From: Alphaproteobacteria bacterium UBA2966
GTDB lineage: Bacteria; Pseudomonadota; Alphaproteobacteria; UBA2966
Length of the DNA: 64,000 nt
Direction of reading: 5' to 3'
NCBI GenBank assembly: GCA_002348365.1
Contig: DEBC01000130.1
Coordinates: 15,224-79,223, forward strand
Under the pieces are notes generated by a model. That model did not search any database. It was given only the letters and a program-made list of their open reading frames with translations, and was not told the DNA's origin. A program made the position numbers and the translations under genes. Shown in pieces: positions 9,214 through 60,618 of this stretch. Within the stretch, counting starts at the first letter, position 1. Every line of letters starts with the position of its first letter.

Positions 9214-9972
9214 ATTTACGCACGACGTTCGATCATCAAGCGTGTCGCCGGGCTTCCGCTTGCCGCCGTGCTGGCGGATCCGCTGCTGGCGCAGGCCGCT
9301 GCCGCGACGCTTGAGACCGTATCCCTGCGCACTTCAGGCGGCCAGGATGTTTCGGCGTCCCTCGCAAGACCTTCCGCGGCCAAGGCCCCTACGATCATGC
9401 TGATACATGAATGGTGGGGATTGAACGACCAGATCAAGGCTGTAGACCGGGAATTTGCCAACGAGGGATATCTGGCGCTCGCCATCGATCTCTATGGCGG
9501 AAAAGTTGTCTCGGTTCCTGACGATGCGCGCAGCTTTATGAAACAGGTTGATCCCGAGGTTGCAACGGATACCGTCTCCTCTTGGGTCGACTGGTTGCGC
9601 ATTCACGATCGTGGCAACGGGAACGTCGCGACCATCGGTTAGTGTTTTGGGGGCGGCTGGTCCCTGAACACGTCGCTGGCGGTGCCGGTTGATGCGACAA
9701 TCGTCTACTACGGCAATGTTACCAAGACTGCGGACCAGTTGAAGTCCCTAAAGGGACCCGTCCTCGGACACTTCGCGGCCAAGGACAAGTGGATCAATCA
9801 GAAAATGATCGATGGCTTCGAGGCGGGAATGAAAGGTGCGGGCAAAACCTTCGAGACCCACTGGTACGAGGCCAATCATGCATTTGCCAATCCAACCCAG
9901 GCCCGCTACGACGAAGCGGACGCCAAGCTGGCTTGGCAACGTACGCTCGCGTTCTTGAAGAAACACGTTTAG
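9214..9972 (+). pseudogene. dienelactone hydrolase family protein with Tat-type signal, interrupted by in-frame TAG at 9640-9642
   Basis: One frame reads ...RRSIIKRVAGLPLAAVLADPLLAQAAAA... (Tat-like), then ...MLIHEWWGLNDQIKAVDREFANEGYLALAIDLYGG...NGNVATIG*CFGGGW...ANHAFANP. The TAG sits one codon before the catalytic Cys of the G-x-C-x-G-G motif, splitting the gene into ORFs 9268-9642 and 9682-9972. There is no ATG/GTG/TTG in frame upstream of the RR motif; ATT 9214 has a GGAGG 10 nt upstream. Confidence 0.7.
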
Positions 9973-10008
9973 ACCGGATTTCCCGAGCCGCCAGGGGGCT
10001 TCGCGCGG

Positions 10009-11862
10009 TCAGTGAACGCGCGCCGAACCTCCGGGAGTCATGTGCTGGGGGTCCTCGTCGAACAACTCGGCGAGCTTGTCCATCATGGCGCCGCCGAGTT
10101 GTTCCGCATCGACGATGGTTACCGCCCGCCGGTAGTAGCGTGTAACGTCGTGGCCGATACCGATTGCGACGAGTTCGACCGTCGATCTCGTCTCGATCCA
10201 TTGGATGACCTGACGCAGGTGCCGATCCAGGTAGTTGCCGGGATTGATCGACAAGGTCGAATCATCCACCGGGGCGCCATCTGAGATGACCATCAGGATC
10301 CGGCGTTGTTCGTGGCGTCCCAAAAGTCGGTAATGGGCCCACAGCAACGCTTCGCCGTCGATGTTCTCCTTGAGGATACCCTCGCGCAACATGAGCCCCA
10401 GGCTCTTTCGTGCCCTCCGCCAGGGCTCGTCCGCGCCCTTGTAGATGATATGACGCAGATCGTTGAGACGCCCGGGGTTGGGTGGCTTGCCCCGTGACAG
10501 CCATAGCTCTCGCGCTTGGCCGCCTTTCCAGGCACGTGTAGTGAAGCCGAGAATCTCGACTTTGACGCCACAGCGTTCCAAGGTGCGTGCAAGGATGTCG
10601 GCGCATGTCGCGGCAACGCTGATCGGGCGTCCCCGCATCGAACCCGAATTGTCGATGAGCAACGTCACGATGGTATCGCGGAAATTGGTTTCCTGCTCCT
10701 GCTTGTAAGACAGGGAATGCATGGGGTTGACCACAATCCGGGCCAATCGGGCGGCATCCAGCAGACCTTCATCGAGATCGAATTCCCAGGACCGTTGCTG
10801 CTTGGCCAACAGCCGTCGCTGCAAACGATTGGCAAGCCGACCGATCACCGTCTGCAGATGTTGAACCTGCCGGTCGAGCTGTGCCCGAAGCCGGACAAGT
10901 TCTTCGGCGTCACATAACTCTGTGGCCTCGACGATCTCGTCAAACTGGGAGGAATAAGATTGGTATGGTGGCTCGTTTGCGTTGTCGCCGTATATCCCAT
11001 CCGGCCACCACGGGTGTTCAGACTTGCCAGGATCCTCTTCACCATCTCCCATGGGTTGCATTTCATCGGAGGCAATGAAGTCGGTTTCGCCGGCACTCTC
11101 GCCTTCAGCGACCTCTTCGGTCTCCGCGGACATGCCTTCGGGTGGTGATCCGTCACCGTTTTCGTCTTGGTTCTCTTGATCCGTCTCATCCTGATCGGAT
11201 GATTGGTCGAGTTCCTCCTCCTCGCCATCCCATTCCTCGGCGAGTTCGAGATGAGCGATCAGCCGCCGTGCCACAGCAGAAAATGATGCTTGATCGTCGA
11301 TGGTTTCGGCGAGGTCGTGGAAATCGCTACCTGCCTTCTTTTCGATCTCTTCGCGCCAGAGATCCACGATTTGCCTGCCGCCCTCAGGCGTTGCGCAGCC
11401 GGTCAATTGCTCGCGCAGCATCAGTCGGACAGCATCGGCCAGTGGCGCCTGCTCCCGGTGTTCCATCTTGGCGAAACCGCGAGCCTCGCACTCCTTCGCC
11501 AGTGCGTCTTCGAGATTCTGCGAAACGCCGACCATGCGCCGGGCACCGATGGCTTCGATGCGCGCGAGTTCTACGGCGTTAAAAAGTGCACGTGCGTCCT
11601 GGCCCTTGGGAGCACGCGCTGCGTGCAGTTTTTCGTCATGGTGGCGGACCCGAAGTGCCAGCGAATCGGCCATCCCGCGAATCTGCCCGACTTCGTTCGC
11701 CGGAAGCTCCCGCGAAGGCAGGGGTAGGCGGGCGCGGTCGCCGCTGAGACCCGCCCCTTCGGAACCATAAGAGACCTCCAGCTCTTCGTTTTCGGCGATC
11801 GCCCGCATCGTCGCGGTAACGGCGCGCTTAAACGGTTCAACCGGGCTCTCGGGCTGGCTCAT
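10009..11862 (-). CDS. cobT: cobaltochelatase subunit CobT (aerobic pathway; vWA domain, acidic linker)
   Basis: 617 aa, [33 protein letters not shown]..., with a D/E-rich linker and a C-terminal von Willebrand A domain; adjacent to cobS. Confidence 0.85.
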
Positions 11863-11893
11863 GATACCTCGGTGGTCGGGGTCGCGGTTGCGA

Positions 11894-12898
11894 CTACATC
11901 AACGTAATGTTGGTGGCGGATTCGGGAAGTTCTTCGCCGATACAGCGCTGGTAGTACTCCGCCACCGTGGTCCGCTCCACCTCGTCGCACTTATTCAGGA
12001 AAGTGAGGCGGAAGGCAAAACCCACATCATTGAAGATGGATGCGTTCTCGGCCCACGTGATGACGGTCCGTGGCGACATCACGGTGGAGATGTCTCCGTT
12101 CATGAAACCGGCACGTGTGAGATCGGCAAGATTGACCATATTGGCCACGACTTTGCGGCCCTCGGCCGTGTCATAAGCCGGGGTCTTGGCAAGAATAATC
12201 TCGAGCTCCTTCTCATGAGGCAGATAATTGAGCGTCGAAACAATATTCCAGCGGTCCATCTGGCCCTGGTTGATCTGCTGTGTGCCGTGATAAAGGCCCG
12301 TGGTGTCACCCAGGCCGATGGTGTTGGTCGTGGAGAAAAGCCGGAACGCGGGATGCGGACGGATGACCTTGTTTTGATCCAACAGGGTCAGTTTGCCCTC
12401 AGCCTCAAGTGCCCGCTGAATTACGAACATCACGTCCGGCCGGCCGGCGTCATACTCGTCGAACACCAGCGCGGTCGCTGATTGCAGCGCCCACGGCAGC
12501 ATGCCTTCTCGAAACTCCGTTATCTGCTTGCCATCCCGGATGACGATGGCGTCTTTGCCGATGAGATCAATTCGGCTGATATGGGAGTCAAGATTGACCC
12601 GGACGCACGGCCAATTGAGTCGCGCCGCTACCTGTTCAATGTGGGTCGATTTGCCAGTCCCGTGATAGCCTTGGATCATGACGCGGCGGTTGTAGGCGAA
12701 GCCGGCCAGGATGGCGAGAGTGGTTTCGTGATCGAAGCAATAGGCCTCGTCGATATCCGGCACCAACTCATGCGTCTGTGAGAACGCGGGTGCCTGTAGA
12801 TCGGTTTCGAGCCCAAAGACCTGATTGACCGACACGGTGATGTCGGGAACGCCGAGCGGCTGTTCGGCCCCTTCGACCGCGGTATCCGTGGAATCCAT
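11894..12898 (-). CDS. cobS: cobaltochelatase subunit CobS (AAA+ ATPase)
   Basis: 334 aa with Walker [29 protein letters not shown] and an AAA+/MoxR-like fold. Confidence 0.9.
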
Positions 12899-12929
12899 GA
12901 AGTGAGTCCGTGTTGTTAAGGGCTACGGA

Positions 12930-13517
12930 TCATGTGTAGCCGGAAGAGAGCAAGAAGCCATACGCTTGATTGACGGCCTTCAGCCTTTCCTCGGCTTTCT
13001 TGCTGCCACCGTTAGCGTCTGGATGGAACTTTTTGACGAGTTCCTTGTATCGGTCCTTGATTTGTTGCAAGTCTGCGTCTGAGTCAAGGTTCAGTTCGGC
13101 CAAGGCGCGTCTTTCTTCGGACGTGATTCTCCGCCTTTGGCCTGATTCGTCTACGACTGTAACGTCATCTTCGCCCCATAAAACCCCGTAATCGTCCCGA
13201 AAACTGCCAAAAAAATCGCGGTCAGGAGAGAAATCGCGCGCAGCGCCTTTTCGAGAGTCAGTTGCAAACGGCCAAGTGGGTCGATGCCAGGTGACAGCAC
13301 TTTTTTGGAATCTTTCGATGTCGTTCTGGGACATGCCGTCAAAGTAATTCCAGGTCGAGTTGTAGGCACGAACATGATCGAGGCAGAACCAAAAGTATGA
13401 ATCGAGATCGTGCGGAGATTTCGGCGCCCGGAATTCCCCCTCGGAATCGCACTCCGGATGATCGCAGACGCGAACGGACTGTGCGGGACTGAAATTCTTG
13501 AGCTTAGACGGGGGCAT
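12930..13517 (-). CDS. J-domain protein conserved next to cobS in alphaproteobacteria
   Basis: 195 aa; C-terminal J domain (DLQQIKDRYKELVKKFHPDANGGSKKAEERLKAVNQAY) and N-terminal Cys/His cluster. Confidence 0.7.
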   Translation of the reverse strand: MPPSKLKNFSPAQSVRVCDHPECDSEGEFRAPKSPHDLDSYFWFCLDHVRAYNSTWNYFDGMSQNDIERFQKSAVTWHRPTWPFATDSRKGAARDFSPDRDFFGSFRDDYGVLWGEDDVTVVDESGQRRRITSEERRALAELNLDSDADLQQIKDRYKELVKKFHPDANGGSKKAEERLKAVNQAYGFLLSSGYT

Positions 13518-13637
13518 TCAACAAGTATGGAGTCAGGCCGTTGTGCTGACAACCGTTGGCACGACGCGGATTTTTGTAGAATTGAACATAGGGTCAATAC
13601 TTGCTACCACGATTCAATCGCAACGGGAGTTGATGGC

Positions 13638-30068: not shown

Positions 30069-31019
30069 TCATTCCGGCTTCGCTTTGTCACCGGCAGATT
30101 GCTCGGTCGTTCCGAGGACATCGGCCAGCCGGGTCGTTGCGCTACCAGGCCGCAAGGGCTGGGGCTGAGACACATGTGGTGCCCACCCAGTCAAGGTGAT
30201 GATCTGGAACGTCGCCGGGATCCTTCCGTCGGAATCACCATGGTTTTGCTGATAGATCTCTCCTGCCCTTAGTAGGGTTTCCCGGCGTGTAAAGGTCCGC
30301 CGCCGGGTCTGGGTGGCATTGGTTTCTCCCATGCCCCGAAGATCGGTCATCAGGCGAAAAATATCCGGATAGGACACCGTCACCGAGTCTGCATCGGCGA
30401 CCGACAGCGAGAAGCGGGCCCGAGTGAGCAGGTCGCCTGCGTCACGCACGTCGAGAAAGGGCGAGACCCTCGGACCCGCGCCGCCTTCGACCTCCGTTTC
30501 GGCCTGGAGGAGTGACTCGCGCAGTTCCCACAAGGTGTCACCCCCGAACAGCGTGGCCAGAAACAATCCGTCGGGTTTCAGCGTACGATTGAGCTGTGCC
30601 AGCGCTCCGGGAAGATCGTTGGTCCAGTGCAGCACCAAATTACTGAGAACAATATCGAAACTCGCGGGAGCGAAGGGTACGGTTTCTTCGTCTGCCACGA
30701 TGCATGCGGAAGGCTGGGCATTTGACGAGATGAATGAAGGTGCCAGACTTCGAACCATCCCCCATGAAGAGTCCGTCTGAACGAGTTCTTCGATGCCGCC
30801 GCGTCCGTGCAAGAGGCTTGCGAGCAAGCCATTCCGGCAACCAACATCGAGGCCGAACGGGAACTTCCGAGTGACATCATCGAGGCGGTCGAGCAGCCCG
30901 TCAGCAGCCATGCGCATGAGAAATTCATGATCCGCTGGCATGAGGGCCGCTCTGTCACGATGTGCCCGGACGGCCACCCGATCGAAAACCGAAGGAAGTC
31001 CCGAAATTTCTTCGCCCAT
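30069..31019 (-). CDS. class I SAM-dependent methyltransferase (conserved neighbour of comF in alphaproteobacteria)
   Basis: 316 aa with methyltransferase motif I (LDVGCRNGLLASLL) and post-I region. Confidence 0.6.
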   Translation of the reverse strand: MGEEISGLPSVFDRVAVRAHRDRAALMPADHEFLMRMAADGLLDRLDDVTRKFPFGLDVGCRNGLLASLLHGRGGIEELVQTDSSWGMVRSLAPSFISSNAQPSACIVADEETVPFAPASFDIVLSNLVLHWTNDLPGALAQLNRTLKPDGLFLATLFGGDTLWELRESLLQAETEVEGGAGPRVSPFLDVRDAGDLLTRARFSLSVADADSVTVSYPDIFRLMTDLRGMGETNATQTRRRTFTRRETLLRAGEIYQQNHGDSDGRIPATFQIITLTGWAPHVSQPQPLRPGSATTRLADVLGTTEQSAGDKAKPE

Positions 31020-31142: not shown

Positions 31143-31904
31143 ATGCGTGTCCTGATCAACGGTTCGGGGCCGCTGATGCGTGCCGTTCTGGATGTCGTCT
31201 TCCCGCCGCGCTGCGTGGGGTGCCGCCGGTTCGTCGACCCTCAAGGCGATCTGTGCCCTGCGTGCTGGAAAAGTTTGAATTTCATCGAAGGGGCGGTCTG
31301 AGCAATCTGTGGTTTTCCGTTCGAGGTTGACGTCGGAGAAGGAACCCTGTGCGGATCCTGCGTGCGCCGGCGGCCTGCATTCGCGCGGGCGCGGTCCGTG
31401 CTCCGCTACGACGAAGGGAGTCGTGAACTCATTCTGGCTTTCAAGCATGGCGACCGCACCGAACTTGCCGTGACACTCGGATCGTGGATGGTTCGTACTG
31501 GTGCTCGTCTCGTAGAAGAATGCGATGCCGTGGTGCCGGTGCCTCTCCATCGGCGACGATTGTTCTTGCGCCGCTTCAACCAATCGGCCTTGCTGGCCTA
31601 CGGCGCGATGTCGGGAAAACGGGGTCCGCCGATACTCCCCGGTGCACTTCAACGCCGACGCAATGACCCGACCCAATCAGGCCGAAGTGCTGCTGCCCGT
31701 CGCGCCAACGTCGCGTCTGCCTTCATGGTTCCCCGCCGCTACCGGGATCGTCTCGCCGGTCAACAGATCTTGCTCATTGACGACGTCTCCGCGACGGGAG
31801 CGACAGTGAACGCGTGTGCAAATACTCTACTTGGCGCGGGGGTCAGAGAGGTTTCCGTTCTCACGCTGTGTCGAGTTGTCCGGGGCAATTCCTACTCTAT
31901 ATAG
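31143..31904 (+). pseudogene. comF: ComF-family phosphoribosyltransferase-domain protein, interrupted by in-frame TGA at 31299-31301
   Basis: One frame reads MRVLINGSGPLMRAVLDVVFPPRCVGCRRFVDPQGDLCPACWKSLNFIEGAV*AICGFPFEVDVGEGTLCGSCVRRRPAFARARSVLRYDEGSRELILAFKHGDR...LLIDDVSATGATVNACANTLLGAGVREVSVLTLCRVV. The TGA falls where the first Cys of the second CxxC zinc-ribbon pair is expected. Confidence 0.7.
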
Positions 31905-33234: not shown

Positions 33235-34392
33235 TCACGCAGACAATTCCGGCAGGCGGAAGAAAAACTTGGCGCCTTTCCCGACCACCGAGTCGACACC
33301 GATTTCACCACCGTGCTGCTCGACGATCGATTTGCTGATGTTGAGACCCAGGCCGGTGCCGCCGACCTGCTGGCCACCCAGCGGGTTCGTGCGAGAAAAC
33401 TTCTCAAATATTCGATCCTTGAACTGCTCCGGAATCCCCTGCCCCTGATCGCTTGCCGATACGAGCACGGATCCGCTCTGCCTTGAAACGTTGACCTCGA
33501 AGGTGTCGCCGCGCGACGAGAATTTGACAGCGTTTGACAGTAGATTGGACATCACCTGCATCAGCCGGTCGTCATCGCCCATGATCTTCGGGCCAGGTGT
33601 GGACTCGCCTACCACGATTCCAACGCCGTATTCACTGGCCAATCCACCGCTGGCCGATACGGCACCGTTCACGAGTTCCATGATATCGAGGGTCTTGACG
33701 CGGAACTCCATCTTGCCGGCGAGAAAGGCTGCCAACGAATCCCGATCACTTACCGGGAGTGCGTCGATGCGTTCTTTGACTTTCGAATAATTCACCTCGC
33801 GGATCGAGATTGGAACGCTCTCGAACAATGTGCGGAAGCACACCTCACTTTCGCGCAGGGCATATTCGGCGGTTCGCTGCTGGGTCGTGTTGATCGCCGT
33901 GCAATGGATAAGTTGCTCTTCGCCGACATCCATCACCCTGACGGTGTTTCTGATCCAGATTCTCTCACTGTTCTTGTTGACGCCTTCGACTTCGTACTCG
34001 CTCGGTGCATATTTGCCAGCAAGCCGCGCCTTCCTGAACTCGAGCATGCGCTCGATCGCTTCGGGCGAGAACAGAATTTCGAGAGTTCCAGCAGCGATGA
34101 TCTCGGCCGGGTCGTCATAGCCGAACAGTTCGGCATAGGCCTGATTGGCATAGAGTGGTGTCCAGCCCTTGTGCACCACAATCCCCGCGCCCGAGGTCTC
34201 GACGAGTTGTTGGAATTCAACACTGCCGCCACCAACTGAAGCAAAATTCAGATCTGGCTGAGCTTCTTGAACTGAGTCATGGCTGGTGACGTTCGTCTCA
34301 AGGCACCTGGCTTCGGCCAATTCATGCTCAAGTTCCGCGATCCGCCGCTCAAGGCTGTATAGATCGGGCGCGGTATCGTGAATCGTTACCAT
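33235..34392 (-). CDS. cytoplasmic PAS-domain GHKL ATPase (histidine-kinase-like) lacking a recognisable DHp/H-box
   Basis: 385 aa with an N-terminal coiled coil and PAS domain, and a C-terminal HATPase_c with N, G1 and G2 boxes (LLSNAVKFS, DQGQGIP, GGTGLGLNISKSIV). There is no His in the ~150 residues preceding the N box. Confidence 0.7.
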   Translation of the reverse strand: MVTIHDTAPDLYSLERRIAELEHELAEARCLETNVTSHDSVQEAQPDLNFASVGGGSVEFQQLVETSGAGIVVHKGWTPLYANQAYAELFGYDDPAEIIAAGTLEILFSPEAIERMLEFRKARLAGKYAPSEYEVEGVNKNSERIWIRNTVRVMDVGEEQLIHCTAINTTQQRTAEYALRESEVCFRTLFESVPISIREVNYSKVKERIDALPVSDRDSLAAFLAGKMEFRVKTLDIMELVNGAVSASGGLASEYGVGIVVGESTPGPKIMGDDDRLMQVMSNLLSNAVKFSSRGDTFEVNVSRQSGSVLVSASDQGQGIPEQFKDRIFEKFSRTNPLGGQQVGGTGLGLNISKSIVEQHGGEIGVDSVVGKGAKFFFRLPELSA

Positions 34393-34557: not shown

Positions 34558-35109
34558 CTAATTGGCCCGTGTCGCGAAGATGCGTTGTACAACTGCCGGT
34601 TTCGGTTTCTCCACGAAGCCGTGTTCATAGGCTCCGATAGAGAGCTTGCCTGAGACGACTTCCATGAGTTCGCCATCGTTCAGAAGGAAATCGGGATTTT
34701 TGGGGCGTCCGTATTGTTCGTTGCCGATGGCGAACGTCTCATAGATGAGAACTCCGCCAGGCGCGACAGCCGAGACGATATCGCCCAAGATAGGACGAAA
34801 CAGGTAGTTGGTGACCACCACACCGGCAAAAGTTTGATTTTCGAATGGCCAGCCTGTTGCCAACTCCAAGTCCGCTTCGAGGACTGTTAGTTCCAAATGT
34901 GGCGACAATGCCCGAACTCCGGAAACATTGCGGTCGACTGCGACAACCGGGTAGCCGGCATCCAGGAACAATCGAGTGTGGCGGCCGTTGCCACACGCGA
35001 CATCCAGGACCCCAACTGCATTAGTCTTAGGCACGCGTCGGGCGAAACGTTGGACCCAAGCCGAAGGTGTCAGATCATGGTGAGCCGTCGCAGAATCCTT
35101 TTCAGTCAT
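34558..35109 (-). CDS. class I SAM-dependent methyltransferase
   Basis: 183 aa with motif I VLDVACGNGRHTRLF. Confidence 0.65.
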   Translation of the reverse strand: MTEKDSATAHHDLTPSAWVQRFARRVPKTNAVGVLDVACGNGRHTRLFLDAGYPVVAVDRNVSGVRALSPHLELTVLEADLELATGWPFENQTFAGVVVTNYLFRPILGDIVSAVAPGGVLIYETFAIGNEQYGRPKNPDFLLNDGELMEVVSGKLSIGAYEHGFVEKPKPAVVQRIFATRAN

Positions 35110-35262
35110 CTCGGCGGACCCGCGCAGTTGTATGCGGCGTACATGCGTTAACCAATTGTCCTCGCCGAATTACTAGGCTATTGATCGCGGCGCGCAAAAT
35201 GGTACATGGGTTTGGTATCATGGTGCCCGCCGGGGTGACGAGGATACTGTAATCATAGAGAC

Positions 35263-35679
35263 ATGATTCTTTACGACGTCATATGTTCGAACGACCACGT
35301 CTTTGAGGCGTGGTTCGCCGATTCCAAAGCCTTCGAAGATCAGCGTAAGTCTGATGCGGTCGCCTGCCCCATTTGCGGTGTTACCGATGTCGAGAAGGCG
35401 CTCATGGCACCAAACATCTCCGCCAAGAAGGAGCAGGCTGCGGCCGATGGCAAGGATGCTGCGGACGCGATGAAGTTTCTCTACAAGATGCGCGAACATA
35501 TTGAAGAGAACTGCGACTATGTGGGGAAGGATTTCGCCGAGGAAGCGCGCAAGATTCACCACGAGGAGGTGGAAAAGCGCGATATCTACGGCGAGGCGAC
35601 GGCTGAAGAGGCGGAAGAGCTTCGCGAGGAAGGTATCGAGTTCGGAGAGATTCCTTGGCCGGCAAGGCACGACGCCTGA
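35263..35679 (+). CDS. DUF1178-family zinc-ribbon protein
   Basis: MILYDVICSNDHVFEAWFADSKAFEDQRKSDAVACPICG... with the typical N-terminal C...H...C..C pattern and an acidic C-terminus. Confidence 0.6.
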   Translation: MILYDVICSNDHVFEAWFADSKAFEDQRKSDAVACPICGVTDVEKALMAPNISAKKEQAAADGKDAADAMKFLYKMREHIEENCDYVGKDFAEEARKIHHEEVEKRDIYGEATAEEAEELREEGIEFGEIPWPARHDA

Positions 35680-44197: not shown

Positions 44198-45286
44198 GTG
44201 GCTAAGATCCCGGAAGAAAAACTGCAGATGATCATTGATCGCCATGCCGCCCTCGAAGGGGAGCTGGCGACGGCTGCCGGTAGTGGCGATGAGTTCGTGC
44301 GTCTTTCAAAGGAATACGCGGAATTGACCCCTGTCGTTGAGGGTGCTGTCGAACTCCAGAGGCTGCAGTCCGAAGTGTCGGGGCTGGAAGAGATGCTTTC
44401 GGACCCCGATACCGATGGCGAAATGAGAACGCTGGCCGAAGAGGAACTCGCTGAACATCGGGAACGCCTGCCCGCGCTTGAAGACAAGATGCAGGTGCTG
44501 CTGTTGCCGCAGGACGCAGCTGACCAGAAGAACGCCATCCTGGAAATTCGGGCGGGCACCGGTGGCGACGAGGCGGCGCTGTTCGCGGCCGATCTCTACC
44601 GCATGTACCAGCGTTACGCCGAACTGAAAGGCTGGAAGGTCGAGGCCTTGCAGGTTTCGGAAACTGACCTCAACGGTGTGAAGGAGGCGCAGGCCTTGAT
44701 ATCGGGTGCGGGCGTGTTCGCGCGCCTCAAGTTTGAGTCTGGCGTGCACCGGGTGCAGCGAGTGCCGGAAACCGAAAGCAGTGGCCGCATTCACACCTCT
44801 GCCGCTACGGTCGCCGTACTGCCCGAGGCCGAGGATATCGATGTCGAGCTCGATGAGAAGGATCTGCGCGTCGACGTCTATCGGGCCAGTGGACCTGGGG
44901 GTCAGTCGGTCAACACTACCGATTCCGCGGTTCGCATCACGCACCTGCCCACCGGAATCGTGGTGACTCAGCAGGACGAAAAATCCCAGCACAAGAACCG
45001 GGCCAAGGCGCTGAAAATATTGCGCAGCCGACTTTACGATCTCGAGCGCGAGCGCGCCCATGCAGAGCGGGCTGAGCAGCGGCGGGGACAAGTGGGATCC
45101 GGCGACCGGTCGGAGCGGGTGCGCACGTACAATTTTCCCCAGGGACGGGTGACCGATCACCGCATCAATCTGACTCTGCACAAGTTGGATCGCGTTCTGG
45201 CGGGAGAGTCGCTGGACGAAGTGATCGACGGGCTCATTGCCGAGGATCAAGCCAGTCGCCTCGCCGAGATGGAAGCAGATGCTTGA
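44198..45286 (+). CDS. prfA: peptide chain release factor 1
   Basis: PxT-type RF1 with GGQ motif ([25 protein letters not shown]); GTG start. Confidence 0.9.
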
Positions 45287-47327: not shown

Positions 47328-49916
47328 ATGGAATTTGAGACCTATACCGAGCGGTCCCGAGGATTCGTCCAGTCGGCGCAGGGCTTGGCACTGCGGACCG
47401 GACATCAGCGGTTCACGCCCGAGCACCTGCTCAAGGTGCTGCTTGATGACGAAGAAGGACTGTGCGCAATCCTGATCGGCGGCGCCGGCGGCGATCCCAA
47501 GGCGGCACAGGCCGGAGTAGAAACCGCACTTGCCAAGCTTCCCAAAGTTGAAGGCTCGGGTGCCGGTCAAGTCTATCTGGCGCCCGAGACGGCCCACCTG
47601 TTCGAATCAGCGGAGAAATTGGCGGGAAAAGCCGGAGACACCTACGTCACGGTTGAGCGTTTGTTGCTGGCACTGGCGCTGGCGACGGATACACCTTCGG
47701 CAGAAATTTTGAAGAGTGCCGGCGTTACGCCGCAAGCTCTGGATGCCGCAATCTCGGATATGCGCAAGGGTCGCACGGCGGATACGGCAGGGGCTGAGGA
47801 TACTTTCGAGGCTTTGAGCAAGTATGCGCGCGATCTGACTGAGGACGCGACCCAGGGCCGACTCGATCCTGTTATCGGCCGCGATGAAGAAATCCGCCGC
47901 ACCATTCAGGTCTTGTCGAGGCGCACGAAGAACAATCCCGTTCTCATTGGTGAGCCCGGCGTGGGCAAGACGGCCATCGTGGAAGGTCTGGCGCAACGAA
48001 TCGTGAATCGAGACATTCCTGAATCGCTTCGGGACAAACGCCTCATGGCATTGGATCTGGGCGCGTTGATTGCAGGCGCTAAGTTTCGTGGCGAGTTTGA
48101 AGAACGGTTGAAAGCCGTACTTTCGGAAATCCAGACCGCTCGCGATGTCATCCTGTTCATTGATGAGATGCACACGCTCGTCGGCGCAGGGGCAGCGGAA
48201 GGCGCGATGGACGCCTCGAATCTCCTGAAGCCTGCACTGGCGAGAGGGGAGCTCCACTGTGTCGGTGCTACAACACTTGATGAGTACCGCAAGCATGTCG
48301 AGAAAGACGGTGCGCTGGCCCGCCGATTTCAGGCGGTCTTCGTCACCGAGCCGACCGTGGAGGATTCGGTTTCAATCCTGCGTGGGCTGAAAGAGAAGTA
48401 TGAACTCCACCATGGCGTCCGCATCACGGACGGTGCCATCGTTGCGGCAGCCACGCTGTCCAACCGCTATATCACCGATCGATTCCTGCCTGACAAAGCT
48501 ATCGACCTGGTTGATGAGGCAACCAGTCGTCGACGTATGGAAGTGGATTCCAAACCCGAGGAAATCGACGAACTCGATCGTCGGATTATTCAGCTCAAGA
48601 TCGAACGGGAGGCGCTGAAAAAGGAAGATGACTCCGCGTCCCGTGAAAGATTGGAACGACTGGAGAAAGAACTCGCGGAGCTTGAGCAGGGGGCGGCGGT
48701 ACTGACTGCAAAGTGGCAGGCACAGAAGGACAAGCTTGCCGGCGCTCAAAAGGTGAAGGAAGAACTCGACATCGCCCGCAATGATCTCGAGCGAGCGCAA
48801 CGGGACGGTGATCTCGCGCGAGCCGGTGAACTTGCCTACGGCGTCATTCCAGAGTTGGAAAAGTGCCTTGCAGACCCGCAAGAGGCCGATGAGCAGCAGA
48901 TCATGCGCGAAGAGGTTACGGCTGAGGATATAGCCAATGTCGTCGCCCGCTGGACAGGCGTTCCGGTTGACAAGATGCTGGAGGGTGAGCGCGAGAAGCT
49001 GCTGGGTATGGAAGAGGACCTTGCCAAGCGCGTGGTTGGCCAGCAGGAGGCTGTCAGCGCCGTTGCCAATGCCGTGCGCCGTGCGCGTGCGGGTCTACAG
49101 GACTCCAACCGGCCCATTGGTTCCTTCCTGTTTCTCGGGCCGACCGGTGTGGGCAAGACCGAACTTACCAAAGCGCTTGCGGAACGCCTGTTTGATGACG
49201 AACAGGCCATGGTCCGAATCGATATGTCGGAGTACATGGAGAAGCATGCCGTCGCCCGTCTGATTGGCGCGCCGCCCGGGTATGTAGGATACGAGGAGGG
49301 TGGTGCACTCACCGAGGTGGTTCGCCGTCGCCCGTATCAGGTGATTTTGTTCGACGAGATCGAGAAGGCGCACCCTGACGTGTTCAACGTCTTGTTGCAG
49401 GTCCTGGATGATGGTCGGTTAACGGATGGCCAAGGGCGCACGGTCGATTTCAGGAATACGCTGATTATCCTCACATCAAACTTGGGTTCTGACTATCTCG
49501 CGGCGCTGGCGGATGGCGAAGATGTCGAATCGGCGCGTGACCAGGTCATGGATGTGGTCCGTACCGCGTTCCGGCCCGAGTTCCTCAATCGTCTCGACGA
49601 GGTCATTCTGTTCCATCGTCTCGGCCGCCAGGATATGACGGGCATCGTCGACATCCAGTTGCGCTCCCTCGAGGCCCTTCTGGCCGATCGAAAGATTTCT
49701 CTCGAAGTCGAGGAATCTGGCCGCGTGTGGCTGGCAAACGCCGGCTACGATCCGGTGTACGGTGCACGCCCGCTCAAACGGGTGATCCAGCGCCAGCTGC
49801 AAAACGTCCTGGCTGGCATGATTCTGGAAGGCGCGATCGCCGAAGGCGAGACGGTAAAGGTCACCGCCGGAGATGGCGGGCTATCGGTGAACGGTGAGTT
49901 GATCCAGGCGGCATAG
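47328..49916 (+). CDS. clpB: ATP-dependent chaperone ClpB
   Basis: [41 protein letters not shown]...; two AAA+ modules ([15 protein letters not shown]..., [19 protein letters not shown]) and a middle coiled coil. Confidence 0.95.
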
Positions 49917-53184: not shown

Positions 53185-54282
53185 CTAAACAGTGGCAACG
53201 GGCGTCACGGGTGAGCCCACGGCGCCCGAGATTCTGAGCGGCGGCGCGGTCAGCAGGAAGCGGCTGCGGCCATTTGACCGCAACCAATCGGCAAGTTCAC
53301 TGAGGTGCCATAGCTCGGCGAGAGGGACCCCCAACCTGAACAGGCAATGTTCGTGCAACGGGAGCCAGGGACGTCGCGCCCCGGGCCCGGAGTCGTCCGG
53401 ATTGGGCAGTAGTGGATCGCACTCCACGGCGAAGTTGTCGGCAATCAGCGCAACGAGTTCGCTGTCCGTGATCCACTGCAGCAGCCGCGCATCCCAGCCG
53501 TTCAATTCAGCATAGGGATTGGGCCGAACGCGTGCGGGATCGGGCGTGCCGCCCATTTCCATCAACATGCGGCCGAAACCCGAGTGCAGCAATACCATGT
53601 CCCCCGACTCAACGACCACGTTGTCGGCTTCCATGATCATCATCAGGTCGTCATAGCCGACCTTTCGGCCCGTCGTGCTGAAATGTGCTTCCAGGTCGAT
53701 CATGACACCGCGACCCTGCACGCAGGCCACCGCAAAATTATCGATACTGAGAGCTTTTGCCTGGGCTCCTTCGTACCGGTCGTAACCGTCAATACCGGTG
53801 TCGGACGTGGGGTCTTGGAAGTGCTAATCCCCGCGATAACCGTTGTAGTAGACGATCTCGGGAACGCCGTCGCCGTCGGCATCGAACATCGAACCGACAA
53901 GCGCCAGGGAATCCCACTGAGAAGAGTATTGAGAGTAGAGAAGGACGATGTCGTCGTTCACGACATCGGTAATCTCCGAGCCTTGGGAGACCGACTCGTG
54001 GTTAAAGCAGGGTCGCCCGTCCCGATCGGGTGTAAAGATGCGCGGCGGATTTCGACGCGGATTGACCGCGTTTCCGCCCGGATAATTGAGAGGAAGACTG
54101 AGGCAGAAATTTAGTCCCTCCCGTACTTCTGCCACGCCCTCGCGGACCTTTTCCGGTGTCAGCAGGTTCAGGCGTCCGATCTGGTCATCGGGGCCGAATT
54201 CGCCCCAAGTGGAACCCTCGGGCCGATTCTTCCAGCGTTGTGCCATGACACCCTCCCTTATCTGCGACAATCTCAACGTCAC
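53185..54282 (-). pseudogene. cyclase-family (PF04199-like, arylformamidase-related) gene interrupted by in-frame TAG at 53824-53826; first gene of the amrAB operon
   Basis: ORFs 53824-54282 (...RLNLLTPEKVREGV...YSQYSSQWDSLALVG...YRGD*) and 53185-53730 are in the same frame (both end coordinates are 0 mod 3) and the sequence is continuous: ...YRGD*HFQDPTSDTGIDGYDRYEGAQAKALSIDNFAVACVQGRGVMIDLEAHF... Confidence 0.7.
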
Positions 54283-55511: not shown

Positions 55512-55597
55512 CCCTTACCCGCCTCGTGGTGACCGGCGCCCTCTCCCTCAGGGAGAGGGCAAAGGGAGCATGGCGACCGTGGGTGAGGGGGTGTTCT

Positions 55598-56131
55598 CTA
55601 GTCAGAGCCTCTGGGCGGCGTCTCATCCCCCTCGCCGAGCGCGCGCTGCATGAAGACGGTGTCGACCCATTGGCCGTGTTTGAAGCCGATCGATTGCAGA
55701 GCGCCGACATGGTGGAACCCGGCACGTTCGTGAAGCTTGATCGAGGCCTCATCCTCAGTGACGCCGATGATGGCGACCATCTGGCGGAAGCCCGCCTCTG
55801 TGCACTCATCGATCAAGCGTTCCAGAAGGTTCGAGCCCAATCCTCTCCGCGCCGAATCCGCATCGACGTAGACGGAGTTCTCGACGGCATGGCGATATCC
55901 TGGCCGGACGCGATAGGGGGCTGCGTAGGCATAACCCAGGACCACGCCGTCGACCTCCGCGACCAGGTACGGGAGGCCTCGCTCCTTTACCGCCTCCAAC
56001 CGGCGCTTGAGCTCATTGACGTCGGGCGGTTCTTCCTCGAAGGAAGTCACGCCACTGAGAACGTGGTGGGCGTAGATTCTCTGGATGGCAGGAAGGTCCC
56101 GTTCCTGGGCATCGCGAACCAGTGGAGACAA
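55598..56131 (-). CDS. GNAT N-acetyltransferase (phosphinothricin acetyltransferase-like)
   Basis: ...LVRDAQERDLPAIQRIYAHHVLSGVTSFEEEPP...QMVAIIGVTEDEASIKLHERAGFHHVG. A TTG start near 56131 is more likely than the ORF-track GTG at 56185. Confidence 0.7.
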   Translation of the reverse strand: MSPLVRDAQERDLPAIQRIYAHHVLSGVTSFEEEPPDVNELKRRLEAVKERGLPYLVAEVDGVVLGYAYAAPYRVRPGYRHAVENSVYVDADSARRGLGSNLLERLIDECTEAGFRQMVAIIGVTEDEASIKLHERAGFHHVGALQSIGFKHGQWVDTVFMQRALGEGDETPPRGSD

Positions 56132-56154
56132 TCGCGCGGAGGAGGATGGCGAGG

Positions 56155-57042
56155 TCAGGCGAATTCCGCAATTTCGAGGGCACACAAGGTCTCGATCAGG
56201 CTGGTCATATGTGACTTCACCTTTTCCATGCTTGGCAGGCGGCGAATCTTCGCTTCATCCATGTAGAGCGCCCTGTTGATCTCGATCTGTAGCGCATGGA
56301 TCCCGTCGGCTGGTCGACCGTAGTGACGCGTGATGTAACCCCCGGCATAGGGCGTATTGCGGCGAACGGTGTAGCCCAGCGAAGTCAATATCTCCTCTGC
56401 CGCATCCGTCAGACTCGGGTGGCAACTTGTGCCGTAGCGGTCGCCGAGCACGATCTCAGCCCGTTCGTGCCCCGAGTCCCGGTCCATCGGACCACCCACA
56501 GACGGCATCGAATGACAATCGACGAGGACGGCATGTTTGAACTTGCGGCGGGTCGACTCCAACAGATCGGCCAGCGCCCGGTGATAGGGCAGGTAGAGCT
56601 CATTGACGCGACGCACAGCCTCGGCGAATTGCAGTTTGCCGCCGTAAATCTCGGCGCCGCTCGAAACCACTCTTGCAATGGTTCCGAGCCCTCCAGCGAC
56701 CCGGTAGGAGCGGGTATTCACATAGTCGGGGAGGTCATCCTCGAACATGGCAGGGTCCAGTTCCCAGGCCTCACGATTGACGTCGAGATAGGCCCGCGGG
56801 AAATTCGCCCGGATCAGGGGAACTCCCTGTGCCGGAGCTTCTCCGAACAGTTCGTCGACGAAGCTGTCTTCCGATTTTCTCAGGCTGTGGGCATCGAGGC
56901 GAGAGGCGGCGAGCAGGTCGTCCGGGTACTCCGAACCGCTGTGGGGTGAAGCGAACACAAGCGGTGACGACGCCGCTCTCGGTGCCAACACGTCGAACGG
57001 GGCTGGGGTTAATTCGATCGCCGCTTCAGGCACAGCCGCCAT
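56155..57042 (-). CDS. N-formylglutamate amidohydrolase family protein
   Basis: 295 aa (...LVFASPHSGSEYPDDL...VLVDCHSMPS...) resembling FGase/HutG-like zinc hydrolases. Confidence 0.75.
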   Translation of the reverse strand: MAAVPEAAIELTPAPFDVLAPRAASSPLVFASPHSGSEYPDDLLAASRLDAHSLRKSEDSFVDELFGEAPAQGVPLIRANFPRAYLDVNREAWELDPAMFEDDLPDYVNTRSYRVAGGLGTIARVVSSGAEIYGGKLQFAEAVRRVNELYLPYHRALADLLESTRRKFKHAVLVDCHSMPSVGGPMDRDSGHERAEIVLGDRYGTSCHPSLTDAAEEILTSLGYTVRRNTPYAGGYITRHYGRPADGIHALQIEINRALYMDEAKIRRLPSMEKVKSHMTSLIETLCALEIAEFA

Positions 57043-57259
57043 GACCTGACTATGTAGGCTGTGGCGCCCGAACGGGCAAGCGAAAGCACGCTTGATCTGT
57101 TGTAATTCTGCAAATGCCGATCAGGTGAATCTTTGAGCAGGTTACGAGGGTCTTGCCTTGTCGGGTCGGTCAAACTAAAACGCGACTCCTTGTCCGGCGG
57201 TCGGTAAAATCCGTATCGCCGCGCATCCGCCGGCCTTGCGACGCGGATGCCGACAAAGT

Positions 57260-57334
57260 GGGCGCGTAGCTCAGCGGGAGAGCACCTCGGTGACATCGAG
57301 GGGGTCGTAAGTTCAATCCTTACCGCGCCCACCA
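57260..57334 (+). tRNA. tRNA-Val (anticodon GAC), CCA encoded
   Basis: GGGCGCGTAGCTCAGCGGGAGAGCACCTCGGTGACATCGAGGGGGTCGTAAGTTCAATCCTTACCGCGCCCACCA. Cloverleaf with 7-bp acceptor stem, anticodon stem CCTCG/CGAGG and loop gTGACat. Confidence 0.9.
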
Positions 57335-57370
57335 TTTTCTCCATTGCGGCATTGTTGAGAGGAACCCGAC

Positions 57371-58492
57371 ATGGTTGACCTTGCTGTCGCGACTGCGGAC
57401 GGGTCCCCTGATCATTCCCTCACCATTCGCGGCCTGAAGGTTCGACCTGTCGACGTGCCCCTGGAAGACCCGGTGGTCACAGCGAGCGGTACGGTCTCCT
57501 CGGCACCGCTGGTCCTGGTCGACCTGCTGACCCGGGAAGGCATCACCGGCCGCGGGTACATCTTCACCTATTCGCCGGCCGCGCTGCTGCCCACTGCGCG
57601 GCTGGTTCAGAACATGGCTGCCATGATCGAGGGAGAGTCAGTGGCGCCGCACGATCTCGATCGGCTCCTGCAGCAGCGCTTTCGCCTGCTCGGCGCGGAG
57701 GGTCTGACGGGTATGGCGATGGCGGGCATCGACATGGCGGCGTGGGATGCGCTGGCGCAAGCGCGGAACATGCCGCTCGCGGAGTTGCTGGGTGGTGCCT
57801 GCAAGCCGACCCCGTCCTACTACAGCGCAGGCATGATTGATGAGCCCGAGGCCGAACGTCTCATCGAGAAGTCACTTGGCATGGGATTCCGGGCCTTCAA
57901 GGTCAAGGTCGGCTATCCCAGCGTGGAAGCGGATCGCCGTATCATCCGCTTCATACGACGGCTGGTGGGGGACGAGTTTGAGCTCATGATCGATTTCAAT
58001 CAGAGCCTGGACGCACCCGAAGCCGAATCCCGCACCCGGGCACTCGCGTCGGAGAACCTGACCTGGATCGAGGAACCGCTGCTTCACCATGACTTCGCCG
58101 GACACAGCGCCGTGCGCCGAAAGGTCAAGACGCCAATTCAGATCGGAGAGAACTGGTGGGGCATACCCGATATGACCAAGAGCCTTGCGGCAGGTGCTTC
58201 CGATCTCTGCATGCCCGATGCGATGAAGATCGGTGGTGTCACGGGCTGGATGAAGGCGGCGGCGCTGGCAGGCGCCCACGGCATGCCCATGTCTTCACAT
58301 CTGTTCGTCGAGGTTAGCGCTCATCTGTTGGCTGTAACACCGACAGCGCATTGGCATGAATACCTTGATTTGGCCAAGCCCGTCCTTCAGCGCCCTCTGG
58401 AGATCCGCGATGGCGATGCCATTCCCTCGGATGAACCGGGTACCGGGGTCGATTGGGACGAGGATTCCGTGGGGCGCTATCTGGTCGACTGA
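57371..58492 (+). CDS. mandelate racemase / muconate lactonizing enzyme (enolase superfamily) protein
   Basis: 373 aa; capping domain plus TIM-barrel with metal ligands (KVKVG...DFNQS...EEP...). Confidence 0.8.
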   Translation: MVDLAVATADGSPDHSLTIRGLKVRPVDVPLEDPVVTASGTVSSAPLVLVDLLTREGITGRGYIFTYSPAALLPTARLVQNMAAMIEGESVAPHDLDRLLQQRFRLLGAEGLTGMAMAGIDMAAWDALAQARNMPLAELLGGACKPTPSYYSAGMIDEPEAERLIEKSLGMGFRAFKVKVGYPSVEADRRIIRFIRRLVGDEFELMIDFNQSLDAPEAESRTRALASENLTWIEEPLLHHDFAGHSAVRRKVKTPIQIGENWWGIPDMTKSLAAGASDLCMPDAMKIGGVTGWMKAAALAGAHGMPMSSHLFVEVSAHLLAVTPTAHWHEYLDLAKPVLQRPLEIRDGDAIPSDEPGTGVDWDEDSVGRYLVD

Positions 58493-58878
58493 TTCGGAGC
58501 GGCGTTACGCATTAACGCTGCTCGGGCGGTTACCCGGAAGCAGATTGAACACGCTCCGGCGGGCGAACGCCGGGGGTGTCACCCGCCTTTGACGGGAATC
58601 CAACCCATAGAATCCCTTAATCTTAAACGGTTGCCACAGTTTTCCGTGAGGGCTTCTAGAATCCGTCCCGGAGTCAGGCTGCTCCCACAACGATGCAGGA
58701 TGGAGAGGCCGGGACTTCAACAGATCCCGTCAGTTACAAATTCATACAACTCACTACGCTGCAGACAAACTTCTCGAACATCGAATCGCTTAAATCGTAC
58801 GTGGTTGGTTTGGTAACCCGGATGGGGCGCACATTTGATCCGGGAGCTTTTGTCAGAGATTGGTGGTGAAGGGAGTTT

Positions 58879-59223
58879 GTGGACATGGGACGGGAAAGGA
58901 CGATCAACAGGACGGTATCGCAGTACATTGGAGTGTTGATCTTGGGTGCCATCGTGGGAACGGTCATGGCCATTGTGGGATCTGTCACGGCCATCGCGAC
59001 GGCCAATGCACATGTAGCGATTTATGCGACGTCCATTCCGGCGACGTATGAGGCCGCGCGTCTTGACGTCGTGGCGGTCATGGAGCCGTCGAACTGGTGG
59101 GATGATTTCGAGCTGGCTCTGCCGAATCTCGAGCTGCGCCCGGAGGATCCAAATCTGATGAATTCTCCGGTCATCGAATTGAGCAACGGCATGGAAATGG
59201 TCGGCACAAACGTCGCTGAATAG
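58879..59223 (+). CDS. hypothetical small membrane protein P1 (glycine-zipper-like TM plus W-x-D-D-F-ELALP motif)
   Basis: 114 aa, MDMGRERTINRTVSQYIGVLILGAIVGTVMAIVGSVTAIATANAHVAIYATSIPATYEAARLDVVAVMEPSNWWDDFELALPNLELRPEDP... AAGGGAG Shine-Dalgarno 9 nt upstream; lies in a lower-GC patch. Confidence 0.5.
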   Translation: MDMGRERTINRTVSQYIGVLILGAIVGTVMAIVGSVTAIATANAHVAIYATSIPATYEAARLDVVAVMEPSNWWDDFELALPNLELRPEDPNLMNSPVIELSNGMEMVGTNVAE

Positions 59224-59570
59224 ATCGGCTCATCACGACGGTCAAAGTGCCCGCCGCCGGCCGAAGTGGTGCACACGGACGGAACTCAACAGTCTTCCTA
59301 TGAGTTCTTATAGGTTAGGCACTCCTACCGCATGTAGCAGGGATTTCCTGACGCTCTACAATATGATGTGGATCTGGCCGATCGCTCTCGTGGATTTGAG
59401 CGCCAGAAACAAATCGTTACATGTCGAAACCCGCCAGAAATCCGTAACGTCGTACGGTTAGTCAGCTCAGACTCATGTGATGGGGTGCCTCCCACAGCCA
59501 TATGGGGGACCGCTCGCCTGCAACGGCGAATGTGTTCGGTGAGGGAGAGAGCTGAGGACAGGAGGGGAAG

Positions 59571-59843
59571 ATGCGTCACCCGTTATTCGGATATGCGATC
59601 GCGGTTGCAATCGGCGCCGCTGTGGGTACGGGCGCTGCCGTACTGGGGCCGAACCCAGTCAAAACCTGTGTGGTCAACCCGGTTGCTGCGTCTGAGGCCG
59701 ATCCGGTGGCTCACTGGCAGGACGAGTTGGAACTCGCTCTGCCCGATGACCTGCCGGCAACACAGAAGCATGCCACGCTTGCCGGCTCGGGTGCTGACGA
59801 TTTTCTGGGCCTGGAATTGGCAGGCGACTCCAAGGGTCACTAA
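59571..59843 (+). CDS. hypothetical small membrane protein P2, paralog of P1
   Basis: 90 aa, MRHPLFGYAIAVAIGAAVGTGAAVLGPNPVKTCVVNPVAASEADPVAHWQDELELALPDDLPATQKHATLAGSGADDFLGLELAGDSKGH. AGGAGG Shine-Dalgarno upstream; shares the glycine-zipper segment and the HWQDELELALP motif with P1. Confidence 0.5.
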   Translation: MRHPLFGYAIAVAIGAAVGTGAAVLGPNPVKTCVVNPVAASEADPVAHWQDELELALPDDLPATQKHATLAGSGADDFLGLELAGDSKGH

Positions 59844-59910
59844 GCAAGCTGCAGTGGCGAGGTGCGCTACCGCGGCGCCTCGCTGCGCGCCGAAGGCGAT
59901 CGTTCTGCCA

Positions 59911-60618
59911 TCATCTCAGCGAGACTGCGTTTGGCTTGTCCCTCGGTATCGAATTTTCGTCTGCCAGCCATGCTGCCAGATGGCTTTTCACTTCGGGCCA
60001 TTCATCGTCGAGGATCGAATGCCAGGGGGTATCCCGGCTCATGCCTTTAACGATCATGTGGTTGAAAAAGATGCCCTGGAACCGGAAGCCGAGGCGTCGA
60101 GCGGCCGCCCGGGATTTGGCATTCAGGGAATTGCACTGCCATTGCATGCGCCGGTAGCCGAGGTCGGTCATGGCATGATCGAGCAGAAGGTAAAGGGCTT
60201 CTGTGCCGCCCCGGGTTCTTTGCAGCGATGGCCCAAACCAGATGTAGCCGATCTCAATCACGCCAGCCTTGGGGTGAATGTCGAGATAGCTCGCCATGCC
60301 GCAGGCGAGCCCCGTTTCCTCGGAGCGAATTGCATAGGTCACCCGTTCGAACATGGCCGCGTTGTTCTCCAGCTATGTCTTGAATGAGTCGACGTCCGCC
60401 CATGGCCCGTCTGGCAGAAAATCCCAGATCCCGCGTGCCTTATCGGACCCGTGGGAGGAGTGGTACAGCTCATCGGCGTGAACCGGCGGATTGAGCGGTT
60501 CCAGTCGGACGTGCCGGCCTTCAACAGGTGTGCGAGCCGAAATGAGGCCGCTTGGCGGGGTCTCGACGGTAGCCCCCGACAACGGTCGGGGAAAGGGAAC
60601 TTCCTGATCTGGTTTCAT
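59911..60618 (-). pseudogene. RimJ/RimL-like GNAT acetyltransferase interrupted by in-frame TAG at 60373-60375
   Basis: ORFs 60373-60618 (...GRHVRLEPLNPPVHADELY...WADVDSFKT*) and 59911-60354 (MFERVTYAIRSEETGLACGMASYLDIHPKAGVIEIGYIWF...RRLGFRFQGI...) are in one frame, continuous as ...DSFKT*LENNAAMFERV... Confidence 0.7.

Follow-up and report, generated by a model that had tools for sequence, protein, structure and literature searches.

The four interrupted open reading frames described here are almost certainly genuine unitary pseudogenes in neutral decay, rather than products of read-through, recoding or sequencing error. They lie in a 64,000-nucleotide stretch of contig DEBC01000130.1 (the window) from Alphaproteobacteria bacterium UBA2966. 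Their in-frame stops are real, they evolve neutrally, they have gathered extra lesions, and intact orthologues are present elsewhere; from these sequence data, we infer that the four genes have probably lost their function and are dispensable. They are ordinary unitary pseudogenes of differing age, and the kind is already known. Of the three explanations listed, without preference, by the original prediction, nonsense mutations in dispensable accessory genes stands, whereas assembly error and regulated read-through do not.

According to the proposed mechanism, a single marine alphaproteobacterial species, uncultured and with a global distribution, would have lost the need for four accessory genes. 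These encode a putative secreted esterase resembling dienelactone hydrolase, ComF, an enzyme of the cyclase/formamidase family and a RimJ-like acetyltransferase, and they were presumably knocked out by point mutations. The ages of these events would be graded, with the acetyltransferase (GNAT) gene the oldest, the comF and cyclase stops present in every sampled copy, and the dienelactone hydrolase (DLH) stop still segregating. Following inactivation, the genes would drift neutrally and acquire further nonsense mutations and small deletions, lineage by lineage. Translation is predicted to end at each stop, with RF1 acting at TAG and RF2, which lies outside the window, presumably at TGA; no recoding mechanism would be involved.

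Position and reproducibility of the in-frame stops

The stops were found where they had been placed by the original prediction, with one internal stop per gene within the window. On the forward strand, the DLH-family pseudogene (9214–9972) is interrupted by TAG at 9640–9642, and the comF pseudogene (31143–31904), which encodes a double zinc ribbon and a phosphoribosyltransferase, by TGA at 31299–31301. On the reverse strand, TAG occupies 53824–53826 (codon 142) of the cyclase-family, kynurenine-formamidase-like pseudogene (53185–54249) and 60373–60375 (codon 82) of the RimJ/RimL-like GNAT pseudogene (59867–60618). The continuity of homology claimed for each gene was borne out by Pfam domains that bridge all four stops, namely, DLH over residues 47–251, DZR_2 over 15–73 together with Pribosyltran in comF, Cyclase, and Acetyltransf_3 over 38–179.

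The population sample comprised 26 loci (L001–L025 and L107) that were recovered by exact-protein look-up and are 99.1–100% identical to the window. They originate from several Tara Oceans runs, from other ENA, JGI and Logan assemblies, and from NCBI assemblies, including the metagenome-assembled genome GCA_002377535.1, and they span two sub-clades that are approximately 0.5% apart. The comF TGA was present in 10 of 10 loci, the cyclase TAG in 10 of 10 and the GNAT TAG in 9 of 9, while the DLH TAG was carried by four of six copies (five loci compared and a sixth allele read separately). The comparison of orthologous positions, which had been suggested as a check, thus revealed three stops that are fixed in the sampled species contigs and a DLH stop that is polymorphic against TGG.

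Sequencing, consensus or assembly errors in the record could produce such stops, each of which differs from a sense codon by a single base (TGG>TAG, TGY>TGA), and the source is seemingly a metagenome-derived genome. However, the same stops recur in 9–10 independent contigs each, from different samples, assemblers and both sub-clades, and in the DLH gene, the stop and other variants linked to it segregate as four haplotypes. Base-call or assembly error has therefore practically no chance of being the explanation, because the stops are reproduced by independent assemblies. Two look-ups returned nothing from the species itself: the exact look-up of the window protein at 30069–31019 gave no match, the callers of the collection using a later ATG (290 aa), and a contig scan with the neighbouring CN-hydrolase retrieved relatives of at most 63% amino acid identity among the matches listed, with its own species absent.

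Sequence evolution and lesion spectrum

The four genes differ from their neighbors in both the kind and the density of their population variants. They carry 25 missense and 4 nonsense variants against 9 synonymous ones (29:9), while the 53 intact genes of the window show 88 non-synonymous against 125 synonymous variants (Fisher p=7.7e-5). In the four genes, variants are also three times as dense as in the intact ones (12.1 vs 4.0 per kb, p=6e-8). The observed share of non-synonymous and nonsense changes, 76%, compares with a neutral expectation of 71–75% for these sequences, and no nonsense variant was found in the 53 intact genes. Among the 38 substitutions, 4 are new nonsense mutations vs approximately 1.2 expected from codon composition, a seemingly mild excess that counts slightly against this simple picture.

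Further lesions have accumulated in individual lineages. They comprise four more nonsense mutations, i.e., K207* in the DLH gene, W115* in comF (31486 G>A, in 4 of 10 loci), and Y52* and S201* in the clade B GNAT gene, together with two 1-bp deletions, one at 60404 in the clade B GNAT gene and one at 53328 in the cyclase gene of a single locus (L009). Additionally, a PAS/HATPase histidine kinase gene (33235–34392, reverse strand), which is intact in the window, is frameshifted in clade B by a 10-bp deletion at 33523–33532. The deletion is present in 4 of 10 loci (L016, L017, L021 and L022), where the kinase is called as 331/307 plus 51 aa or as a truncated 307-aa protein, against 385 aa elsewhere; its variants have an N:S of 11:7. 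Because of this deletion in clade B, pseudogenisation by frameshift must also be counted among the processes of the species.

The original prediction had described the flanking sequence as free of other damage and all genes as free of frameshifts, which does not hold, since the GNAT gene lacks 1 bp near 59953 and the DLH gene has ATT in place of its initiating Met codon. Nor is the pattern all-nonsense, and hence unusual: one of the four genes is frameshifted in the window itself, and the tally for the species in the window amounts to 8 nonsense mutations, as well as 4 frameshifting indels and a single altered start codon. At this local scale, the usual mixture of indels and nonsense mutations was found, which the prediction had named as evidence against its reading. 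The lesion mix across the window is ordinary.

A lineage that inactivates its genes mainly by substitution, with a bias toward nonsense, perhaps during early genome reduction or under a peculiar mutation spectrum, would account for 8 nonsense mutations against 4 frameshifts in the region, for the 4 new nonsense mutations where approximately 1.2 are expected, and for the pseudogenisation of four, possibly five, of approximately 57 genes (~7%). However, the numbers are small, and at ordinary pseudogene loads of 3–5% the probability of at least 4 such genes among 57 is 0.09–0.32. Frameshifts clearly occur, the coding density of approximately 89% is typical for a free-living bacterium, and the nonsense changes (G>A twice, C/T>A, A>T, C>A and C>G) share no signature, a mixture which also refutes a single mutational signature, e.g., G>A, behind all stops. 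A bias of this kind is therefore considered very unlikely.

Termination, read-through and recoding

Codon reassignment had been judged unlikely in the original prediction, and the assessment remains valid: mcm, meaB, rpmB and cobS all end in TAG, and the window contains RF1. The RF1 gene, prfA (44198–45286, forward strand), is intact with its PCRF and RF-1 domains, and its product is 362 aa long in all loci; with an N:S of 0:5, it is under purifying selection. TAG ends 23 of 52 intact window genes (~44%) and TGA 25 of 52; the use of TAG, at approximately 44–50% here, compares with 23% in related loci. Early genome reduction, dominated by nonsense mutations and accompanied by TAG-rich stops, in which young TAG-bearing genes such as the DLH gene might undergo leaky UAG read-through, is an improbable reading of these figures.

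Programmed or regulated read-through, or a suppressor tRNA, could keep the four genes functional. Such a reading would be in keeping with the identity of three of the four stops in every population sample, with the preponderance of TAG (three of four) and with the low-level UAG read-through reported for Salmonella pseudogenes (PMC9122581). However, purifying selection is not kept downstream of the stops: N:S is neutral, and extra stops and frameshifts occur on both sides of them. The threefold higher density of variants is likewise found in exactly these genes, and the DLH stop is polymorphic, alternating with its ancestral Trp codon and with a second stop of independent origin. Since TAG terminates approximately 44% of the intact genes, its efficient suppression would be very costly, and the conservation of RF1 also speaks against it. 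The only tRNA found in the window is tRNA-Val(GAC), with no suppressor tRNA, and neither pyl genes nor pyrrolysine-type methyltransferases are among its called genes. The TAG codons occupy one Trp site and two variable sites in unrelated enzymes. Regulated read-through is thus contradicted by the neutral N:S, the threefold variant density and the lesions of sister lineages, and we consider it highly improbable. Spontaneous read-through at a low level, as in the Salmonella pseudogenes (PMC9122581), may nevertheless take place.

The TGA of comF raises the separate question of selenocysteine. The claim that at least two stops sit at conserved residues proved correct: the residue in the DLH gene, given as Tyr/Trp, is an invariant Trp, and the comF stop (C53*, TGY>TGA) replaces a Cys that all 55 ComF homologues aligned from related loci possess. 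In the cyclase and GNAT genes, the stops fall at variable rather than conserved positions. Pairs of selenocysteine and Cys at aligned sites are a classic signature of selenoproteins, and comF resembles them in that its TGA falls exactly at such a Cys. However, it differs from them in structure, evolution and chemistry. No SECIS hairpin was apparent in the 62 nt from the TGA (31299–31360), which fold no better than shuffled sequence (MFE −15.9 vs −16.1 kcal/mol on average for the shuffles, z=0.07), and an Rfam scan had no match there. The genes selA, selB, selC and selD are absent from the window. The variants of comF are neutral (N:S 6:4), part of the population carries W115* as a second stop, and the conserved phosphoribosyltransferase motif DDVxTTGAT reads DDVSATGAT in the window. 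Furthermore, the Cys in question is a zinc ligand, which is not known to be a redox site. Selenocysteine at this position is accordingly given virtually no credence. As a pseudogene, comF is collinear with its homologues from end to end, without a frameshift, and intact ComF occurs in 55 related loci.

Graded ages and relation to known pseudogenes

The DLH gene is the youngest of the four pseudogenes, and its stop is still a segregating allele. The lesion W143* (TGG>TAG) falls within the motif GWCFGGGW, in which the Trp is invariant among orthologues; the ancestral TGG is still carried by two loci (L013 and L107). The population contains four haplotypes at codons 143 and 207, namely, TAG/AAA, TGG/AAA, TGG/TAA and TAG/TAA, the second nonsense mutation being K207*. 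The gene thus represents a case of loss via two independent nonsense alleles that recombine. Intact orthologues of 252 aa (P0241–P0245), which like the intact cyclase come from the closest of the other lineages, are 80–85% identical. Codon 1 of the window gene is ATT (9214–9216), 9 nt downstream of GGAGGA, while all eight aligned full-length orthologues have Met at that codon, beginning MYARRS or, in the two most distant ones, MFARRS and MSSLARR. A 5′ frameshift, with initiation at an ATG at 9194 in another frame, was rejected in favor of the altered start at 9214 because of the orthologous Met and the position of GGAGGA.

The cyclase-family gene is intact in a sister contig (L106) that is syntenic with the window. 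This orthologue (P0001, 354 aa) is 85% identical at the amino acid level, and its codon at the position of the stop is ACG (Thr); polarising the stop by the sister species fails, as ACG>TAG takes two steps. In the window copy, a near-invariant His (position 116) is replaced by Leu.

The GNAT gene is the oldest of the four, combining a stop with a frameshift and with numerous substitutions of conserved residues. In tblastn alignments of two homologues (P0121 and P0123), the frame changes from −2 to −1 at 59953, indicating a 1-bp deletion that places the last ~28 codons in another frame, down to the original stop TAG at 59867–59869. Many of its substitutions are at near-invariant positions. Intact homologues are more distant only (at most 69%), and none is present in the sister locus.

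Unitary pseudogenes inactivated by nonsense or frameshift have been catalogued in Salmonella Typhi and Paratyphi A (PMC9122581), and the PGAP classes "internal stop" and "frameshift" have been applied to pseudogenes of the Mycobacterium tuberculosis complex (PMC9676053). Those described here resemble them in being single-copy genes at the ancestral syntenic position with one or a few point lesions, with homology on both sides, intact orthologues in relatives and relaxed selection afterwards, and also in the independent inactivation of the same gene in different lineages. However, the catalogued hosts are host-restricted pathogens, whereas the present one is uncultured, apparently free-living and cosmopolitan in marine waters, and the evidence derives from metagenome population variation, not from isolate genomes. 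The "pseudo-pseudogenes" of Salmonella, i.e., disrupted genes with low-level read-through or frameshifting (PMC9122581), are similar in their in-frame UAG-type disruptions of otherwise well-preserved reading frames. In contrast, the present genes, known from sequence alone, retain no constraint, and any leakage would thus be without detectable selective value, since no constraint is kept in their sequence evolution.

The value of the analysis is mainly negative, in that a pattern of clean stops hinting at recoding, suppression or error appears as ordinary decay in population data. It also provides a small case of graded-age pseudogenes in a wild marine population, and it indicates that independent metagenome contigs can be used in place of re-sequencing. 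All four loci are best annotated as pseudogenes, with the GNAT gene assigned an internal stop and a frameshift. The adjoining gene-poor stretch at 58493–59910 contains two small paralogous hypothetical open reading frames that share the motif W.DE.ELALP; its interpretation as an older frameshifted pseudogene was rejected because these two frames and the frameshifted GNAT tail lie there.

Interrupted genes and their lesions

Within the window, each of the interrupted genes contains a single internal stop, and reading of the sequence verified all four stops of the original prediction: TAG at 9640-9642 in the dienelactone-hydrolase-family (DLH) ORF (9214-9972, + strand), TGA at 31299-31301 in comF (31143-31904, + strand), TAG at 53824-53826 in the cyclase-family gene (53185-54249, − strand), and TAG at 60373-60375 in the RimJ/L-like GNAT (59867-60618, − strand). 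The predicted homology across the stops was borne out when X was put in place of each stop before the Pfam domain search, in that the DLH domain (residues 47-251), DZR_2 (15-73) plus Pribosyltran in comF, the Cyclase domain, and Acetyltransf_3 (38-179) in the GNAT all span the interruption. Two stops were also correctly placed at conserved residues. In comF, the stop falls on the first Cys of the second CxxC motif, a column that is Cys in 55/55 homologues from related loci, and the DLH stop replaces the invariant Trp of GWCFGGGW in the orthologue alignment; the ancestral TGG is directly seen in the population, and the DLH change is therefore G>A. The other two sites are variable, with ACG (Thr) in the intact sister orthologue of the cyclase gene and W, H, S, Y, A or T among GNAT homologues.

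The observation is real but incomplete, since the claim of no other damage and no frameshift fails for a 1-bp deletion at about 59953 in the GNAT and an ATT at the DLH start codon. Past ...WLADEN, the GNAT frame departs from all homologues, and the homologous tail (FDTEGQAKRSLAEMMAERSPSAR) is encoded in a different frame that ends with TAG 59867-59869; in tblastn with two intact homologues (P0121 and P0123), the alignment leaves frame −2 and resumes in frame −1 at 59953. The lesion is a 1-bp deletion common to all nine loci, because no variants occur between 59881 and 60017. In the DLH ORF, no ATG, GTG or TTG occurs ahead of codon 19, and position 9214 is an ATT, located nine nucleotides past GGAGGA, which aligns with the Met start of eight full-length orthologues (MYARRS.. 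in six) and is common to all four copies aligned. The comF and cyclase genes are end-to-end collinear with intact homologues. Near-invariant sites are substituted in the window copies of the cyclase (e.g., H116L) and the GNAT (e.g., R161Q, E181Q and N194S).

Population loci and selection

Exact-sequence look-up with three intact window proteins and one DLH allele recovered 26 same-species loci (L001-L025, L107) with 99.1-100% identity to the window, derived from independent assemblies (several Tara Oceans runs, other ENA, JGI, Logan, and NCBI, the latter including MAG GCA_002377535.1) and forming two sub-clades ~0.5% apart. The comF TGA and the cyclase TAG are each found in 10/10 loci and the GNAT TAG in 9/9, whereas the DLH TAG is polymorphic, with TGG instead in L013 and L107. 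Sequencing or assembly error, which had been listed as an option, is therefore excluded, as three stops are invariant across independent assemblies and the fourth is polymorphic. The species is an uncultured marine alphaproteobacterium whose sequence recurs, 99.1-100% identical, in many ocean metagenomes. Among other lineages, the nearest one found is represented by the sister contig L106 and shows a DNA identity to the window of only 75-77%, and a CN-hydrolase query of species-representative genomes gave at best ≤63% amino acid identity among the matches listed (Rhodospirillales-like MAGs).

Population variants were placed on a 57-gene map of the window built from gene calls. The four interrupted genes carry 25 missense, 4 nonsense and 9 synonymous variants and two indels of 1 bp each (12.1 variants per kb), compared with 88 missense, 0 nonsense and 125 synonymous variants, one 9-bp in-frame indel and one 10-bp indel (in a kinase) in the 53 intact genes (4.0 per kb). 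Both the N:S ratio (Fisher p=7.7e-5) and the higher variant density (p=6e-8) distinguish the interrupted genes, in which non-synonymous and nonsense changes make up 76% of those observed vs a neutral expectation of 71-75% for their sequences. Extra lesions in sister lineages comprise K207* (9832 A>T) in DLH, W115* (31486 G>A) in comF (4/10 loci), Y52*, S201* and a 1-bp deletion at 60404 in the GNAT (5/9 loci), and a 1-bp deletion at 53328 in the cyclase gene of L009. The N:S ratio, the variant density, these lesions and the substitutions at near-invariant sites together show that the four genes evolve as neutral DNA.

All sequence-testable defining features of a unitary bacterial pseudogene are found in the four genes, which points to classical members of this category; they match the PGAP pseudogene classes "internal stop" and "frameshift" (PMC9676053). 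Among the options originally listed, the right one is real nonsense mutation in accessory genes that are dispensable, and the finding represents biology already known. A second GNAT (55598-56185, − strand, 195 aa) is intact; its population variants, at 10.2 per kb, are 6 non-synonymous and 0 synonymous, and selection on it may be relaxed or diversifying; its counterpart in L106 is called as an ORF of just 140 aa with no Pfam match.

Relative ages and lesion spectrum

The GNAT is the oldest of the four pseudogenes. It combines a stop, a frameshift, many conserved-site substitutions and the lack of a sister-locus orthologue: tblastn found no RimJ-like GNAT in L106, where the syntenic block ends past the MR_MLE gene and a DDE transposase and several ORFs lacking a Pfam match follow (L106:2633-3994). 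The comF and cyclase stops are older than the split of the two sub-clades, and DLH is the youngest. Its codons 143/207 occur as four haplotypes, TAG/AAA, TGG/AAA, TGG/TAA and TAG/TAA, which include two null alleles of independent origin and one haplotype that is either recombinant or doubly mutated. That all four combinations of the nonsense polymorphisms exist in the population (window, L012, L013 and L107) implies, by the four-gamete criterion, recombination or recurrent mutation within a 600-bp stretch, in a species with ~0.5% diversity.

The pattern had been described as all-nonsense and free of indels, which proved false. Across the window region, all lesions seen in the species add up to 8 nonsense mutations, 1 start-codon change and 4 frameshifting indels, of which the GNAT has two, the cyclase gene one, and a histidine kinase of clade B one; this mixture is ordinary. 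The PAS/HATPase histidine kinase (33235-34392, − strand; N:S = 11:7) has a 10-bp deletion at 33523-33532 in 4/10 loci (L016, L017, L021 and L022), is called there as 331/307 + 51 aa or as a truncated 307 aa, and is a fifth gene undergoing pseudogenisation, by indel. Four pseudogenes among ~57 genes fit pseudogene loads of 3-5% (P=0.09-0.32), and the coding density is ~89%. Comparison of the nonsense changes revealed no common mutational signature; the 4 new nonsense mutations seen vs ~1.2 expected form a mild excess in numbers too small to interpret.

Recoding, stop usage and minor features

Very little supports programmed read-through, suppression, or Sec or Pyl recoding at the stops. TAG ends 23 of the 52 intact window genes and TGA 25; every locus carries an intact RF1, whose variants comprise 0 non-synonymous and 5 synonymous changes; and a tRNA-Val is the sole tRNA in the window. 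For Sec at the comF TGA, a 62-nt segment beginning with the TGA is no more stably folded than shuffled sequence (z=0.07), and an Rfam scan of the region gave no match. The neutral evolution of the four genes likewise speaks against recoding and for pseudogenes. Low-level spontaneous UAG read-through in pseudogenes is documented for Salmonella (PMC9122581); it could also occur in these genes, but has left no selective trace.

TAG is unusually frequent as a stop codon here. Its share of the intact-gene stops (44%, with 4 TAA; examples of stops at 4265-4267, 6503-6505, 7440-7442 and 49914-49916) rises to 50% when an automatic ORF picker is used on the window, and is 23% pooled over 80 related alphaproteobacterial loci and 5/13 in L106. 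The original stops of all four pseudogenes are TAG.

At intergenic position 35127, between the genes at 34558-35109 and 35263-35679, a 21-bp unit (TTGTATGCGGCGTACATGCGT) varies in copy number, with one additional copy in L020, L024 and L025, and L018 carries two copies of the unit within an insertion of 75 bp relative to the window. Two small hypothetical ORFs (58885-59223 and 59571-59843, + strand), each with a hydrophobic N-terminus and without Pfam annotation in any locus, look like paralogues because of their common W.DE.ELALP motif; they occupy a gene-poor stretch adjoining the GNAT pseudogene.
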